Source of the DNA: Candidatus Saccharimonadota bacterium
GTDB taxonomy: Bacteria; Patescibacteriota; Saccharimonadia; Saccharimonadales; UBA4665
DNA length: 32,000 nt
Reading direction: 5' to 3'
Assembly: GCA_016699935.1 (NCBI GenBank)
Contig: CP064992.1
Location: forward strand, 570,001-602,000
The stretch's first letter is position 1. Every line of letters starts with the position of its first letter. Both the position numbers and the translations under genes were made by a program. Below the pieces are notes generated by a model. It saw only the letters and a program-made list of their open reading frames with translations, did no database searches and had not been told where the DNA came from. Positions 21,244-31,012 of the stretch are shown piece after piece.

Positions 21244-22151
21244 CTACTTGTGGTGGAATTTTTCGTGTACAGCTTTCAGGTGCGGGTCGGTGACGTGGGT
21301 GTATATCTGCGTAGTTGAGATATTACTGTGACCCAGCATGGCCTGGACAGAGCGGAGGTCGGCGCCGTTCATCAGTAAATTCGTCGCAAAACTATGCCGC
21401 ATCGTGTGGGGCTGACGTGCTTGGTAATACCAGCCAGCAAGGCATAGTGCGCAACCAGTCGCTGGATGCTCCGCGCCGTTAAGCGGTGAAAATTCCCACT
21501 ACGGTCAACCGTTTTTCGGCCGCTGTAGCGCATAAATAATGGTTTGGTGGTGTCGGTTCGCTTGTCGAGGTACTGCTGTAGCCACTCGGCAGTTTCCAAG
21601 CTGATAAAGATCGGGCGATCTTTTTGACCCTTACCGCGCACCATGAATTCTCGTCGCTTGAGGTTAATATGGTCGCGGTCGAGCCCAACTAGCTCTGATA
21701 CGCGTAATCCGGAGCTGAATAGTAGCTCTAGGATGGCACGGTCGCGCAGGCCGGCTACAGTGTTTGTATCTGGCTGGTCAAATATGCGCTGCAGCTCTTC
21801 CTCATTCAGGAAGGTTACCTGGGGTCGTTTCGTCCGGGATAGCTCTATGGTATCTGGTGCCATACACTTCATTCCGCGTTTGTGGCAGAACTTCAAGAAG
21901 CTGCGAAGAGCAATGAGGTGGTAGTTGAGGGTGCTTTTCTGTAACTCATCATGAACATTTGTTCCGAGTCGGTTGAGCCAGAGCCGCCACTTGCGCACAA
22001 GCTCTTGGTCGATATCTTCGACAGCTAAGTCGCCACCGTAATCAACGAGCCGGGTGAGGTAATGGTCATAATTGCGAATCGTTTTTTGGGAGCGGTTTTG
22101 CTCTATTTCGAGATATTCGAGAAAATCTGTCTTGGCTTTCGTAAACTGCAT
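21244..22151 (-). CDS. Tyrosine recombinase of the XerC/XerD-like family.
   Basis: The N-terminal SAM-like domain reads ..[23 protein letters not shown]... The catalytic tail [39 protein letters not shown] is restored by adding one base at the run 21408-21411. Confidence 0.8.
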
Positions 22152-22152
22152 A

Positions 22153-22208
22153 TGAATAAGTATCAAGTATCGAGTATGAAGTATCAAGTATCAAGTATCA
22201 AGTATTTC
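22153..22208. repeat. Heptanucleotide array in the divergent recombinase/ndk intergenic region.
   Basis: TGAATAA GTATCAA GTATCGA GTATGAA GTATCAA GTATCAA GTATCAA GTATTTC. Confidence 0.9.
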
Positions 22209-22274
22209 CTAACCTTCGGTTTCAATGTGTGTCTGTATCTGTTACAATGCATCTGAAAGAAAGGATGTTGTAAT

Positions 22275-22787
22275 ATGGAACAAACACTAGTTGTCTTTAA
22301 GCCAGATGCGGTGATGCGCGGTATTGTTGGTGAGATTTTGACCCGTTTTGAAAGAGCTGGTTTCAAGGTGATTGGGATGAAAATGGTGCAGCCCGATTAT
22401 GAACACTTCCATGGGCATTACGAGGGAATTGGTACGCTTAAAACTCGCAAAGGAGCTGAGATATTTGAAAGCCAGCTTGCAGCCATGCAAGTTGGTCCGG
22501 TGATTGCCATGGTGCTGGAAGGGGTAGAATCAGTTGAGTTTGTTCGGAAAATGGTTGGCGATACCCAGCCAAAGACCGCACTCCCTGGTACGATACGCGG
22601 CGATTACGCCCATGTCACCTATGGTCAGGCATCATCCGCAGGATTCGGTGTGGCCAACTTAGTGCATGCATCGGCAACCGCAGAAGAAGCAGAGAAGGAA
22701 ATTGCTCACTGGTTCAGCGAGAGCGAACTTTTTGCGTATGAAACTGTGCACGAATTCTTCACGCAGCCTCGGAAAAAGGCCAAATAA
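22275..22787 (+). CDS. ndk: Nucleoside diphosphate kinase.
   Basis: LVVFKPDAV.RG.VGEI..RFE..GFK; GTIRGDYA; NLVHAS. Confidence 0.9.
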   Translation: MEQTLVVFKPDAVMRGIVGEILTRFERAGFKVIGMKMVQPDYEHFHGHYEGIGTLKTRKGAEIFESQLAAMQVGPVIAMVLEGVESVEFVRKMVGDTQPKTALPGTIRGDYAHVTYGQASSAGFGVANLVHASATAEEAEKEIAHWFSESELFAYETVHEFFTQPRKKAK

Positions 22788-22800
22788 CACCTTAAAATCT

Positions 22801-22817
22801 GAGCACTTTTTGTGCTC
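22801..22817 (+). terminator. Hairpin after ndk.
   Basis: GAGCAC-TTTTT-GTGCTC; weak tail. Confidence 0.4.
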
Positions 22818-22822
22818 ACTAT

Positions 22823-22856
22823 GTCCCGATAGTTCAACGGATAGAATAACTCCGTC
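22823..22856 (+). pseudogene. Exact copy of the first 34 nt of tRNA-Arg(CCT), from the 5' end into the anticodon loop.
   Basis: 34/34 identity with 23069-23102. The sequences diverge after ..ACTCCGTC. Confidence 0.9.
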
Positions 22857-23068
22857 AAATTTACCCCATGAAATCTAGTGATTTCATGGGGACCCCATTA
22901 ACAGACCGGGAAGGTGAGACTCGCCTGCTAAGCGAGTCTCAGGGGAATCTTCCGTGTCAAGCTATGCCTGACGCCACGCAAGTACCGGGGCCGCCGAAGC
23001 CAAACGAGCCCTTCTCTAAAGAATTCGAGATGTTATGTCGAGTTCGGGTTATGGTAAGATTATCTCGT
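22857..23068 (+). other. Hairpin-rich spacer between the tRNA-Arg fragment and the intact gene; candidate structured RNA.
   Basis: Perfect 12-bp hairpin at 22864-22891. Hairpin GAGACTCGC-CTGCTAA-GCGAGTCTC at 22916-22940, enclosed by CGGGAAG/CTTCCG. Hairpin GTCAAGC-TAT-GCCTGAC at 22956-22972. TGgTAAGAT, an extended -10, lies 8 nt before the tRNA. Confidence 0.5.
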
Positions 23069-23143
23069 GTCCCGATAGTTCAACGGATAGAATAACTCCG
23101 TCCTAAGGAGCAGATGTTGGTTCGATTCCAGCTCGGGATACCA
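23069..23143 (+). tRNA. tRNA-Arg(CCT)
   Basis: Manual cloverleaf: acceptor GTCCCGA/TCGGGAT, D arm GTTC..GAAT, anticodon loop GTCCTAA, T arm GTTGG-TTCGATT-CCAGC, encoded CCA. Confidence 0.85.
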
Positions 23144-23154
23144 AACGACACACT

Positions 23155-24065
23155 ATGAATATGAAACCGTATGATGTTATAGCATTTGGGGGCTGTTACC
23201 TCGATATCAATACAGTTGGTTTGCCATTTGCTGGTCGTGGTATACCTGTCGAAAAAGAGATTCGCGGTAAAGATTATGAGGTTTTGCCTGGTGGCTCCGG
23301 TATAAATTTTGTCCGAAGGCTAAAACTGTTTGGGCTACAGGGTTTATTCATTGGAATGAAGGGTGATGACGCAGCGGGCACGTTGATTGAACAGCTTCTT
23401 GTCGAAGAAAATATACAAGTATGCCTTTTGCCTGCAATGGGTAGTCGGACGAATATCGGGCTGAATATGGTAGGTGAGCGAGGTGATCATGTGGTGTTTA
23501 GCTTAGGGAATGCAAACCAGGCATTGTCGAGCAAGTTACTTCTGCCCGAGCTCGCCAAAGAAGTAACGGATAAAACATTCTTGTATATGGGTACGTTGTA
23601 TAAGCTTGATGGCTTGCGCCTGACTTTGGAGCGGTTATTGCACTTGCAAAACGGCAAGGCGCAATGACGGTGGTAGATCATGGTAGGATTACGCCCGGCG
23701 TACCCTGAACGATTTCGGCAAGTTCGAAATGTCGTTCTGGCGGCGGATTATTATTTACCGAGTAAGGCTGAGTTTCTCGAGACTTGGGAGGTGAGCAGTG
23801 TCGAAGAGGGCTTCGACTGCTGCAAAAATGGCACCGCAGCTCGTGACAATCGTAAAGATGGTTCCCGCGGAGCGCACTATCTCGTGGAAGGCTCCTTCAA
23901 AACCGTCCCGGCCGTAGAGGGCATACATTCTGGCAATGTTACCGGTGCGGGAGATACCTTTAACGCGGGCTTCATAGCTGCTATGAAGCAGGGTCAATCA
24001 TTGCAATTAGCAATCAAAACGGTTGTGAAATAGCCGCGACTCATATTACAAAACCACTACGCTAG
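23155..24065 (+). CDS. PfkB-family carbohydrate kinase.
   Basis: GG..LD, PGGSG.NF and the signature NVTGAGDTFNAGF. Frame breaks near 23665 and at the A-run near 24017; the corrected stop is at 24063-24065. Confidence 0.7.
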
Positions 24066-25798: not shown

Positions 25799-26193
25799 TT
25801 GCATTTTTATTGTTTGCTTGGTAAACTGACCTCTGTTATCCTATTGAGGCAAACAGTGTTGTTCTCGATGGTCGTTGAGGAACCTACTCTCATTGAGCAA
25901 ATGTATAGCAGCCTTGCGGAAGACCAAATCGGGGAGAGAAATAGACCGTTAGGCTTATGAGAGGATGAGCATAGGCATTGGTCGAAGCTTTTACCGAATA
26001 GGCATAATGAGACTGAGCCGTTAGTTCCGATAAGCGACCGCAAACAAAGGGGCTTATCACGCTTCTTTTGATCTTGAGGAGATCGTCAGCTTGGCGGACG
26101 AGGAACGGAATCAAAAAGATGCTTGCATATTTCTGGCGATTGTCCTGGTCGAGCCGACCACATTAACAACTAGTTTGATACAATGTACAGCAT

Positions 26194-26259
26194 GCGCCCG
26201 TAGTGAAGAGGCCTATCACGCCTCCCTGTCCTGTCACGGAGGAGATCGCCGGTTCGAAC
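26194..26259 (+). pseudogene. tRNA-Asp(GTC)-like sequence with a 12-nt anticodon loop and no canonical T arm or acceptor 3' strand.
   Basis: GCGCCCG TA GTGA AGAGGCCTA TCAC G CCTCC CTGTC|CTGTC|AC GGAGG AGATC GCCGG TTCGAAC.., after which the cloverleaf is lost. TGaTACAAT, an extended -10 (26176-26184), lies 9 nt upstream. The hairpin CCCCAG..CTGGGG plus TTTTT lies at 26293-26321. Confidence 0.6.
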
Positions 26260-26752
26260 GGTCAGATCGCCGGCGTACGCCAGGAGTAAAAACCCCAGTT
26301 TAAAAACCCCCTGGGGTTTTTGGTCCGTGTCCGCCGGTTGAAACCGGCGATCAGCGAACGAACTTACAGATCGGAGTTCGTACAGGTTTGAGCGTGCAGG
26401 AGCTTGCTCCGAAAAGCGAAAATGCCATTTGAAAAACCCCGAAGACTAAAAAGTCCGCCGGTTCGTCGGGCGAAATTTTAGTGGAACTTATCGAAAAAGA
26501 TTTAGCGGAGAAGGGCGAAGCCCGTTATCCGGTTGGTTCTGTCTGCCGGGTACGGATCGGCGATAGTCCCGCCATCGCGGGACGTAATCGCCGGGGCGGA
26601 CGCCAATAAATAGCGCCAAAGAACTCGTTGCTTAGCTGCATGCGATACAACCTGGTCGTAAGGTGGCGATACATCCATTTTCCTTCTTGCGCTTTAAAAT
26701 ACCATGCCGTATACTTCGAATTACAACAGAGGTAATAAGGGAGATACTACAC

Positions 26753-27179: not shown

Positions 27180-27252
27180 GCCACCTTAGCTCAGTTGGTA
27201 GAGCATCTCATTCGTAACGAGAAGGTCGCCAGTTCGATCCTGGCAGGTGGCT
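27180..27252 (+). tRNA. tRNA-Thr(CGT)
   Basis: GCCACCT TA GCTC AGTTGGTA GAGC A TCTCA TTCGTAA CGAGA AGGTC GCCAG TTCGATC CTGGC AGGTGGC T. CCA is not encoded. Confidence 0.85.
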
Positions 27253-27418
27253 CAGGCTTTGCCAGAGGCAAAGCATGTATCAATTCGCAATTTTCAGTTT
27301 TCATTTGTGGTTATTCCGGCGAAGCTGGTTTATAAAAGCAAAAGCAAAGCTTTTGCCTGTAACAATTGCTAATTGTAAATTGCTACATGATAACTGCTTT
27401 TTGCCATTTGCAAAAAGC

Positions 27419-27470
27419 GCGGGTGTCGTATAACGGTCATTATGTAGCCTTCGTGAAGGCTGAGACGGGG
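27419..27470 (+). pseudogene. Copy of the first ~52 nt of tRNA-Gly(CCC), with an altered 8-nt anticodon loop.
   Basis: Identical to 27623-27673 except for one D-loop base and the loop TTCGTGAA in place of TTCCCAA. Homology ends in the T-stem G-run. Confidence 0.85.
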
Positions 27471-27622
27471 TGAGACCCGCCTATGGCGGGTCGCAAGGCC
27501 GGAGACTGATTTGAAGCTATGCTTCAAGTATGTCGAGGCGGGGTCGAGATCCGGCTGATTATGAAATAATCACCGAAATCGTGACCGACTCAAGTCGAAC
27601 CTTGTATAATTATTATTGCTGA
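27471..27622 (+). other. Hairpin-rich spacer between the tRNA-Gly fragment and the intact gene; candidate structured RNA related to 22857-23068.
   Basis: Three perfect 7-bp hairpins with triloops: ACCCGCC-TAT-GGCGGGT (27475-27491), TTGAAGC-TAT-GCTTCAA (27511-27527) and TGATTAT-GAA-ATAATCA (27556-27572). TATAAT at 27605-27610. Confidence 0.5.
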
Positions 27623-27696
27623 GCGGGTGTCGTATAACGGTTATTATGTAGCCTTCCCAAGGCTGAGACGGGGGTTCGACTCCCCCACCCGCACCA
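27623..27696 (+). tRNA. tRNA-Gly(CCC)
   Basis: The cloverleaf, with anticodon loop TTCCCAA and encoded CCA, is clear. As assembled, the C-run 27682-27686 is one C short of closing both the T stem and the 7-bp acceptor stem. Confidence 0.8.
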
Positions 27697-30620: not shown

Positions 30621-30857
30621 TGGTGGGCGTTATCACTAGTGGAATCGGCCTGTTTCATCACGAAAAAGGCCAGCACTGCTGACCTTCTCTCGTGGTGGGC
30701 GATATCACTTCGTGGAATCGGCCTGTTTCATCACGAAAAAGGCCAGCTGTGCTGAGCCTCTCTCGTGGTGGGCGATATCACTTCGTGGAATCGGCCTGTT
30801 TCATCACGAAAAAGGCCAGCTGTGCTGACCTTCTCTCGTGGTGGGCGATATAGGATA
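30621..30857 (-). repeat. Three tandem 72-73-bp repeats plus a partial fourth; on the minus strand each ends with the 3'-terminal 13-18 nt of tRNA-Val including CCA.
   Basis: Plus-strand units start with tggtgggcg at 30621, 30693, 30766 and 30839. The tRNA's own copy is at 31013. Units 2 and 3 differ at two positions; unit 1 is more diverged. Confidence 0.9.
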
Positions 30858-30976
30858 GCAGGCTGCGCCTTTTTACGGGCAATCTTTCTCAGAACAAGTT
30901 CCTGCGAGAGCTTGCCCTCCACCGAACCTTCGTTCGCTAAGCTCACTCTTACGGTTCTCTCCTATTCGTTAGCACC

Positions 30977-31012
30977 ATATATAAATACCCCAAATGAAGG
31001 GGTATTTATATA
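30977..31012 (-). terminator. Perfect 15-bp AT-rich hairpin immediately after tRNA-Val.
   Basis: ATATATAAATACCCC, 7 nt, GGGGTATTTATATAT. Confidence 0.55.

Follow-up and report, generated by a model that had tools for sequence, protein, structure and literature searches.

The stretch of DNA analysed here (the window) comprises 32,000 nucleotides (nt) from a Candidatus Saccharimonadota bacterium (contig CP064992.1, positions 570,001 to 602,000), and this account concerns the region between its ndk and tRNA-Arg(CCT) genes, where a copy of the 5' part of the tRNA is followed by a spacer containing a structured element, here called the A-core. An earlier note, made from the sequence alone, had reported an exact copy of the tRNA 5' half, and the copy proved to be one base longer than was claimed: positions 22822-22856 are identical to 23068-23102, a direct repeat of 35 nt at a spacing of 246 nt that consists of one upstream T and nt 1-34 of tRNA-Arg(CCT). 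An exact match of this length is far beyond chance, and the sequences bordering the two copies are unrelated, as the note had also observed. tRNAs were called with ARAGORN and Rfam, and protein families with Pfam. The features of the locus are as follows.

22275..22787, + strand: ndk (Pfam NDK, E = 3e-40), a conserved upstream neighbour used as synteny anchor
22801..22817, + strand: hairpin GAGCAC-TTTTT-GTGCTC after ndk, conserved among relatives
22823..22856, + strand: displaced tRNA-Arg(CCT) 5' fragment, nt 1-34, from the exact repeat; the gene's ancestral position
22864..22891, + strand: 12-bp hairpin CCCCATGAAATC/GATTTCATGGGG, from folding; left part of the host module that bears the A-core
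22915..23005, + strand: decayed A-core copy of ~90 nt (nhmmer E = 1.5e-14; covariance model R1 48.6 bits, E = 5e-11)
23006..23022, + strand: right flank CGAGCCCTTCTCTAAAG of the host module (the C-module, described below), from alignment with the flanks in relatives
23027..23052, + strand: weak similarity to the 3' half of tRNA-Arg, from variable loop through T-loop to acceptor 3' strand, local alignment score 22
23052..23060, + strand: putative extended -10 box, TGgTAAGAT, ending 8 nt before the tRNA-Arg +1
23069..23143, + strand: intact tRNA-Arg(CCT) with encoded CCA (ARAGORN; Rfam tRNA 53.7 bits)

The 212-nt spacer between fragment and tRNA folds better than shuffled sequences (z = -3.8) and contains the three strong hairpins that had been noticed before, at 22864-22891, 22915-22941 and 22956-22972. 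The absence of a credible open reading frame (ORF) was borne out to the extent that no Pfam family was found there, but a mechanical ORF of 75 amino acids (aa) is present at 22868-23095; it crosses covarying helices, extends 27 nt into the tRNA and matches no Pfam family. Rfam gave no match to the spacer at E up to 10. A strict scan of the spacer for -35 and -10 boxes gave no canonical promoter, and only the -10-type box is supported. The stretch at 23027..23052 may be the remnant of an older tRNA-Arg pseudo-copy, to judge by its sequence, but its alignment score of 22 was reached by 39 of 2000 shuffles (p about 0.02) and is weak evidence.

Homologues of ndk with 70-92% identity are found in Saccharimonadales metagenome-assembled genomes (MAGs), the closest being from Candidatus Saccharibacteria / Saccharimonadales; the ndk sequence of the window itself gave no record in an exact look-up. 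The order Xer-like recombinase, ndk, tRNA-Arg, (PfkB), SurA-like gene, tRNA-Asp, MscL is conserved. The compared loci, which are Saccharimonadales sequences and metagenome contigs, are labelled L001, L003, L010 and so on. In seven of them (L003, L005, L012, L013, L014, L017 and L018) the tRNA-Arg site is empty: the tRNA directly follows ndk and its hairpin, with neither fragment nor spacer. The hairpin stands directly before the tRNA or the fragment in L011, L012, L013, L014, L017, L018 and L020, and lies 3-5 nt from tRNA-Arg in the genomes without an insertion. Other relatives have different material at the same place. L001/L011 contain nt 1-56 of the tRNA followed by an unrelated spacer of 128 nt, L015 contains nt 1-33 and another module, and L020 contains nt 1-28 and about 214 nt, including a hairpin that resembles the one at 22864..22891. 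The insert in L010 is 82 nt long with essentially no fragment (0-2 nt). In L007, L008 and L009 there is a tandem array of 2-3 units, each nt 1-52 plus ~130 nt, with a 3' fragment downstream of the tRNA. The motif of the -10 box, as GTTATGGTAAGAT, is common to the insertion-bearing L001/L011, L010 and L020 and is missing from empty sites. Because sister genomes have ndk, hairpin and tRNA with nothing between them, the fragment and spacer of the window are an insertion of ~246 bp, polymorphic in presence and absence, at a site that turns over rapidly.

The Arg spacer and the corresponding spacer at tRNA-Gly(CCC) led, by BLAST and an nhmmer profile built from six seeds, to further copies of the A-core; those first linked in this way were in L007, L010, L012, L015, L016 and L058. 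Metagenome loci (n = 120) were collected by a single sequence-pattern scan, nearly all of whose matches were true, and nhmmer matches number 156 altogether, in 122 loci. A consensus structure was derived from an alignment of 59 diverse copies, and covariance model R1 of the A-core was used to locate and score the copies in the window.

The A-core is an element of ~90 nt with four helices. It begins with GUGA and helix P1, which contains a conserved A·G pair, followed by the single-stranded GCAAGG; P2 then encloses hairpin P3 with the loop AARCU and is followed by single-stranded GGG; and P4, at the 3' end, has a GAA triloop and a G·U pair that is kept in 54 of the 59 sequences. Compensatory changes were found in 24 of the 33 pairs, 95.4% of the paired cells can pair (75.3% in shuffles), and the covariation score is 0.528, against 0.173 for shuffles and at most 0.10 for controls in which the pairing partner was slid. 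The covariation, which the earlier note had glimpsed in stem changes between the Arg and Gly spacers, is thus real and remains very strong with more homologues aligned, and strongly supports the A-core as a structured element. Since the G·U and A·G pairs are conserved, the fold belongs to the tRNA-sense strand only.

In the Arg copy P1 lies at 22915-22941, P2 at 22945-22953 paired with 22979-22986, P3 at 22956-22972 and a broken P4 at 22990-23005; model R1 gives the span as 22909-23011, with marked non-pairs in P4. Two of the three short blocks that had been proposed as common to the Arg and Gly spacers are homologous parts of this structure: GGTGAGACyCGCC, which belongs to P1 and occurs exactly in the window only at 22913 and 27469, and AAGCTATGC, which belongs to P3. 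The third, TATGTCGAG, is not, as it lies within the A-core in the Gly spacer (P2 3' strand) but ~30 nt past the A-core in the Arg spacer; by our own estimate ~0.1 common 9-mers are expected by chance between spacers of this size.

The tRNA-Gly(CCC) locus of the window contains the second copy.

27419..27470, + strand: displaced tRNA-Gly(CCC) 5' fragment, nt 1-52, 92% identical, with an altered 8-nt anticodon loop
27471..27556, + strand: second A-core copy, after the T-stem 5' strand GGGG (nhmmer E = 1.9e-12; model R1 47.8 bits)
27595..27610, + strand: T-loop-like box TCGAACC, then TATAAT at 27605-27610, 12 nt before the tRNA-Gly +1
27623..27696, + strand: intact tRNA-Gly(CCC) (ARAGORN, Rfam)

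The fragment is an analogous 5' copy, as had been suggested, but its length is 52 nt and its end falls in the T-stem instead of the anticodon loop. The spacer of 152 nt between it and the intact tRNA also folds better than shuffles (z = -3.6); model R1 places the A-core at 27465-27562, with a degenerate P4. Empty Gly sites were found in L016 and L017. The ancestral upstream flank in both L010 and the window meets the fragment and not the intact tRNA, and therefore what was inserted is the spacer with the promoter region plus a single copy of the tRNA 5' part. The A-cores of the window and L010 at this locus diverge far more than their flanks do. Both copies in the window are decayed, and their broken P4, together with the contrast in divergence between A-core and flanks, fits relics and turnover. 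Directly after tRNA-Thr, at 27247-27336, there is a weak match to the A-core model (16.6 bits, E about 0.008) in a region that is kept in L010, L016 and L017; this could be a degenerate copy of great age, or chance alone.

The A-core is widespread beside tRNA genes in Saccharibacteria and was previously uncatalogued. The earlier note could not assign it to a class, and even intact copies have no Rfam family: searched together with the window against Rfam 15, at gathering and at permissive thresholds, they gave tRNAs only, plus a SAM riboswitch elsewhere. The latter is in L098 at 625-729, on a Saccharibacteria-like contig, and scores 43.5 bits, just under the gathering threshold of 44.4. No description of the A-core was found in a literature search, and BLAST against phage and plasmid collections gave no match. 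An origin in viral contigs was considered and rejected, as the four pattern matches there were all chance matches.

A survey of 65 Saccharimonadales sequences, with 141 tRNAs, showed that many of these genes have partial tRNA copies within 300 nt, upstream as well as downstream. The 5' parts upstream end at about nt 20, 28-34 or 52-58, the 3' parts downstream start at nt 50-60, and the two kinds are roughly equal in number. Strand agrees between A-core and tRNA in 91 of the 96 copies having a tRNA within 700 nt. About 36 copies are of an upstream type, following a 5' fragment, and about 33 of a downstream type, preceding a 3' fragment; all isotypes are represented. The usual place of the A-core is the T-loop position of a truncated tRNA copy beside an intact gene. 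The proposed link of the element to tRNA 5' fragments thus holds for tRNA fragments, but 3' fragments are involved equally often (33 vs 36). Upstream units have the order tRNA nt 1-52, A-core, T-loop remnant, often the box TTCGAACC (a second T-loop-like box, frequent in units of this type), -10 box and intact tRNA. In downstream units the intact tRNA and its terminator are followed, after ~30-45 nt, by the variable loop and T-stem 5' strand, the A-core, and then T-loop, acceptor 3' strand, CCA and another terminator. Among 40 upstream-type inserts, 28 have a -10 box with 5 or 6 matches to TATAAT that ends 4-15 nt before +1, compared with 11% of shuffles and 29% of other tRNAs.

In none of ~140 cases is the A-core lodged within a tRNA with both of its acceptor strands, and every copy adjoins an intact tRNA where the contig allows this to be seen. 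Counted per tRNA, the arrangement is upstream only in 26 cases, downstream only in 44 and on both sides in nine. A composite transposon of the form element-tRNA-element was rejected on these numbers, as one-sided tRNAs (70) far outnumber two-sided ones (nine). A large element with a distant fragment was also rejected, since in a search of the whole locus every fragment was within 300 nt of its tRNA, as was a tRNA-like or tmRNA-like RNA, for which there is no conserved 3' acceptor strand complementary to the fragment. Some A-cores follow the D-loop sequence TAGAG, and others occupy loops in hairpins outside tRNAs, as downstream of pth. The hairpin downstream of pth, with the loop GGGGGTGGGCACC, is a conserved A-core target in L074, L080, L094 and L116, and such hairpins show one-sided partial duplication beside the A-core.

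The insertion of the A-core itself can be seen at a tRNA-Gly terminator, which is filled in L015, L058 and L016, with the A-core antisense to the tRNA, and is an empty hairpin in L010. The insertion is clean, GAGGG^[TGAGAG...GAACGTG]^GCGAGCCCC, without duplication of the target or inverted termini. More generally, the termini TGAGA... and ...GAAGGTG are not inverted repeats, P1 and P4 sit at the two ends, and neither terminal inverted repeats nor target-site duplications are present. The base before the A-core is always G, mostly as GGG or GAG; a longer invariant target motif did not emerge.

The C-module is a third small module with dispersed copies, located close to tRNAs and at the ndk 3' end. 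It consists of a GAGGGGCTCGCCCCTC hairpin, a TTCGGAATGAATCCGAA hairpin and an end of the form ...CCTCCCTCTAAAG, and is found at L010 9820-9890, L012 10500-10570 and L015 10620-10690 and at the tRNA-Gly terminators of L010; in L012 it apparently lies within the end of the ndk reading frame. In L010, L012 and L015 it also occurs without an A-core. The right flank CGAGCCCTTCTCTAAAG in the Arg spacer aligns to the CGAGCCCCTCTTT flank of the copies in L015, L058 and L016, and to the CTAAAG ends of C-modules in L010, L012 and L015. The layout of hairpin, ~10 nt and A-core recurs in L015 and L058. The A-core of the window's Arg locus thus lies in a C-module hairpin, and not directly in a tRNA fragment, because its right flank CGAGCCCTTCTCT is the same as in the filled sites of L015, L058 and L016. 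The spacer as a whole is decayed and nested, in the order fragment, hairpin, A-core in C-module, weak 3'-half remnant, -10 box and intact tRNA.

Some downstream units carry cargo: a NUDIX gene in L095, an alpha/beta hydrolase and an Asp/Glu racemase in L069, and, in L108, three successive cassettes with HTH, DUF6326 and other genes. The arrays in L108 and L069 begin at a tRNA gene. No tyrosine recombinase ORF was detected in the 120 element-bearing metagenome loci (~0.7 Mb) by phmmer with an Xer-type query, which fits mobilisation in trans.

Two other candidate enzymes were dismissed. The Xer-like gene at 21372-22187 of the window is housekeeping-like and is syntenic also in genomes with empty sites, and a recombinase encoded in cis was set aside. 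Its ORF has 271 aa, compared with 302 aa in relatives, the Pfam match ends at profile position 129/172, and a heptamer tandem repeat, AAGTATC, occupies 22158-22213 at its 5' end. Small free-standing GIY-YIG genes lie directly upstream of tRNA-Gly or tRNA-Ser in L015 (15822-16298), L014 (15472-15846) and L179 (1774-2082); the L015 protein has a Pfam E of 3e-10 and the end of its ORF overlaps the tRNA 5' end. These may be mobile nuclease genes that use tRNA flanks, but as homologues adjoin tRNA 5' ends in only three loci there is no general link and the nuclease was rejected as driver.

Several other genes of the window are damaged or have fragments beside them. The PfkB-family kinase at 23155-24033, a single gene of 307 aa in L001, is split into ORFs of 170 and 117 aa, by a frameshift, as a pseudogene or through sequence error. 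Within 26040-26285 the syntenic tRNA-Asp(GTC) carries a duplication of 5 nt in its anticodon loop, its T-arm and acceptor 3' end are changed, and it is not called by ARAGORN. On its upstream side are a decayed Asp 5' fragment and a spacer of another family, family B (GCGGACGAGGAACGG..., 26094-26139), which also occurs at tRNA-Arg in L001/L011 and at tRNA-Asp in L010, L016, L017 and L020. Downstream of tRNA-Val(GAC), at 30700-31012 on the minus strand, 3' fragments at 30839-30856 and 30766-30778 are each followed by a terminator-like hairpin; this region includes a tandem repeat of ~73 nt and is without an A-core.

On balance we lean towards reading the fragment and spacer at tRNA-Arg as the relic of a non-autonomous, tRNA-regenerating mobile cassette with the A-core at its centre. 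The observations behind this reading are the insertion and its empty sites, the structure, abundance and contexts of the A-core, the filled and empty pair, the -10 boxes and the cargo. DNA of ~246 bp would have been inserted in, or directly before, the tRNA-Arg(CCT) gene and would have brought its own tRNA 5' part and a -10-type promoter, so that an intact, expressed tRNA would be rebuilt downstream; the original 5' end would have been left at the ndk hairpin as a dead fragment. The spacer would be a patchwork of tiny non-coding mobile modules. The A-core would enter, after a G and without target duplication, the loops of G-rich hairpins such as tRNA T-loops, D-loops and terminator loops, and would be accompanied on the upstream side by a promoter and on the downstream side by a terminator and sometimes cargo genes. 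Such non-autonomous cassettes would be moved in trans by recombination at tRNA hairpin loops, with the folded A-core on the tRNA-sense strand as recognition or recombination site, acting as single-stranded DNA (as integron attC or CTX-type sites do) or as RNA, and the near-universal conservation of tRNA sequences would aid their spread between lineages. The recombination chemistry, the trans-acting enzyme and the form in which the fold acts, single-stranded DNA or RNA, are the parts that we infer.

Several points weigh against a mobile cassette. The fragment ends vary (0-2, 20, 28, 33/34, 52 and 56 nt) and fit a single fixed crossover poorly, though they may reflect later deletions. The A·G pair in P1, the G·U pair in P4, the GAA triloop and the invariant GCAAGG and GGG resemble a functional RNA more than a DNA site. 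One-sided tRNAs (26 upstream, 44 downstream) far exceed two-sided ones (nine), a one-sidedness for which the cassette does not account. No recombinase or transposase was tied to the A-core, in a search made with an Xer-type query, and no circular or excised form of a cassette was seen. The context statistics could be biased, as the metagenome sample was picked by a sequence pattern, and taxonomic placement is available for one metagenome contig only, which is a named Saccharimonadales MAG. A more far-reaching version of the cassette reading seems to us rather unlikely as it stands. The A-core and its T-arm flanks would be the folded attachment site of an undescribed tRNA-anchored cassette system, whose recombinase-less units bear promoter, terminator or cargo, enter tRNA loops and rebuild the gene to either side. 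They would be mobilised by an enzyme acting in trans, the A-core might serve as a structured RNA guide or licence, and the whole would be an integron-like or RNA-assisted platform for gene acquisition specific to Saccharibacteria and other bacteria of the candidate phyla radiation (CPR).

The main rival to the cassette supposes two separate processes, the A-core being a hairpin coloniser akin to miniature inverted-repeat transposable elements (MITEs) or palindrome-associated transposable elements (PATEs), and the tRNA duplications being due to decayed integrase elements or unequal recombination. This is possible but somewhat doubtful. It accounts well for the clean insertion of the A-core alone into a terminator loop without tRNA duplication, for the A-cores in non-tRNA hairpins downstream of pth, for the partial tRNA copies without A-core (at tRNA-Val in the window, downstream in L007 and in L030), for the presence of spacer family B in the same position at other loci, and for the siting of the window's Arg A-core in a C-module and not in a tRNA fragment. 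Random colonisation does not, however, predict the regular build of the fragments, from variable loop and T-stem 5' strand through A-core, T-loop and T-loop-like box to promoter or terminator. Nor could downstream fragments that lack the A-core have been its targets, as they start at nt 58-60 and are without the T-stem 5' strand. The pth hairpins too show one-sided duplication beside the A-core, terminal inverted repeats and target-site duplication are absent, and no integrase remnants were found in any locus. A host-beneficial non-coding RNA, a leader or trailer for tRNA transcription, processing or stability, or a tRNA-like decoy, would explain the very strong covariation, the conserved unpaired nucleotides and A·G and G·U pairs typical of functional RNAs, and the shared strand in 91 of 96 copies, and upstream copies would be co-transcribed with the tRNA. 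Such a role is nevertheless improbable, as presence and absence differ between close relatives at the same locus, there are decayed or truncated copies (both of those in the window included), some copies are antisense to the neighbouring tRNA within its terminator, downstream copies lie beyond a terminator, and arrays contain unrelated cargo genes. The earlier suggestion of a conserved RNA element is thus upheld as regards structure and covariation, but the evidence favours relics of a mobile cassette over a host RNA gene here. It had also been allowed that the spacer might be the decayed end of a larger integrated element; the DNA is indeed inserted and decayed, but the element is tiny.

An intron (group I or other) or one half of a split or trans-spliced tRNA is now largely refuted and very improbable. 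The Arg fragment does end in the anticodon loop, the site of bacterial group I introns, for which tRNA-Arg(CCU) is a known host, and the positions of A-cores in loops recall the non-canonical tRNA introns of archaea. But there is no match to Intron_gpI or any other Rfam family at E up to 10, a complete tRNA and not a 3' exon follows the spacer, 0 of ~140 copies lie within a tRNA keeping both acceptor strands, the junctions shift by 1-2 nt, and a group I core is much larger than 90 nt. Group I R and S boxes picked out by eye in the spacer, and a hammerhead picked out in the Gly spacer (CUGAUUA...GAAA), were discarded, as neither has Rfam support and a full tRNA follows. That the repeat is a chance similarity or an artefact of metagenome assembly is hardly credible. 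The source is probably a MAG, tRNAs are conserved repeats able to confuse assemblers, and other genes in the window are damaged (the split PfkB, the short Xer and the broken tRNA-Asp). Against this, an exact repeat of 35 nt is not due to chance, the same architecture is found in independent assemblies (L007, L008 and L009 come from three sources) and across over 100 contigs of many different projects, and the k-mers that contig names like k141 imply are longer than repeats of 34-56 nt.

Saccharibacteria have tiny genomes with few recognised mobile elements, and their gain of genes is poorly understood. The A-core family, absent from Rfam 15, marks small insertions, hundreds in number, beside tRNA genes; some of them bear accessory genes. 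If these are cassettes moved in trans, CPR bacteria would have a new means of gene flux and of turning over tRNA promoters, and the insertions would be among the few that restore a tRNA on its 5' side and supply a promoter of their own. The fragments and pseudo-tRNAs can mislead tRNA annotation and island finders based on att sites, and the covariance model of the A-core provides a marker for such islands.

Phages, integrative and conjugative elements and islands that target tRNA genes have attL and attR sites with a partial tRNA repeat, normally of the 3' part, and their own integrase. Williams, in NAR in 2002, reportedly distinguished anticodon-loop and T-loop sublocations of tRNA integration sites. 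The A-core units are like these elements in that part of the tRNA is repeated directly on both sides of the insert and the gene is regenerated by element-borne sequence, in the fragment ends in the anticodon loop (34) and T-loop (52-60), in tandem accretion (L007, L108) and in the polymorphism of empty and filled sites. At tRNA-Arg the tRNA repeat on both sides (35 nt) is accompanied by empty sites in seven sister loci. The units differ in supplying a 5' part and promoter about as often as a 3' part, in their size of ~130-250 bp, in the covarying 90-nt fold at the junction and in the lack of an integrase in >120 loci. The duplicated part is 5' at Arg (nt 1-34) and Gly (nt 1-52), which the earlier note had rightly called unusual for a classical att scar; 3' duplications occur elsewhere, as at tRNA-Val. 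No integrase lies in the insert, the 212-nt spacer having no credible ORF, and phmmer found none in the 120 loci.

Small structured repeats include the REP/BIME sequences, Rickettsia palindromic elements (RPE), MITEs of the Correia/ERIC type and PATEs derived from IS200/IS605. The A-core is like them in being non-coding, ~100 nt long and hairpin-rich, in having many dispersed copies (156 in 122 loci) with filled and empty sites (L015/L058/L016 vs L010), and in entering intergenic hairpins and RNA genes; like the IS200/IS605 types, which insert 3' of a short motif, it has no terminal inverted repeats or target-site duplication, the lack of which sets it apart from MITEs. We know of no partner transposase for the A-core, and to our knowledge a tight link with one-sided tRNA duplications, promoters and terminators is undescribed for the REP, RPE, MITE and PATE families. 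Integron cassettes have attC sites of ~60-140 nt which keep their shape rather than their sequence, act as one strand and are served by a recombinase in trans. The one-strand structure of the A-core, the small recombinase-less units and the same-orientation cargo arrays (L108, L069, L095) are similar. Unlike attC, the A-core is without RYYYAAC/GTTRRRY boxes, and has four helices instead of one imperfect hairpin and the invariant GTGA, GCAAGG, GGG and GAA loop; and unlike integrons there is no intI/attI/Pc platform, the anchor is the tRNA T-arm, and many units have no ORF.

In the archaeon Caldiarchaeum subterraneum a tRNA-Thr 5' fragment lies 1.8 kb upstream of the gene with a recombinase-encoding element in between (Sugahara et al. 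2012, PMC3293823). As here, inserted mobile DNA has left a 5' tRNA fragment upstream of a functional tRNA, and the arrangement there is heterogeneous in the population; unlike the A-core units, that element is archaeal, 1.8 kb long and equipped with its own recombinase, introns are involved, and a structured 90-nt module is not reported (PMC3293823). The tycheposons of Prochlorococcus are cargo elements that accumulate at tRNA genes with scattered partial tRNAs, their tandem arrays seeding islands; unlike the A-core units they measure kilobases and encode tyrosine recombinases together with replication modules, and the text consulted makes no mention of a structured element at the junction (Hackl et al., bioRxiv 10.1101/2020.12.28.424599). 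Each of the systems compared thus shares features with the A-core, yet fails on a defining one.

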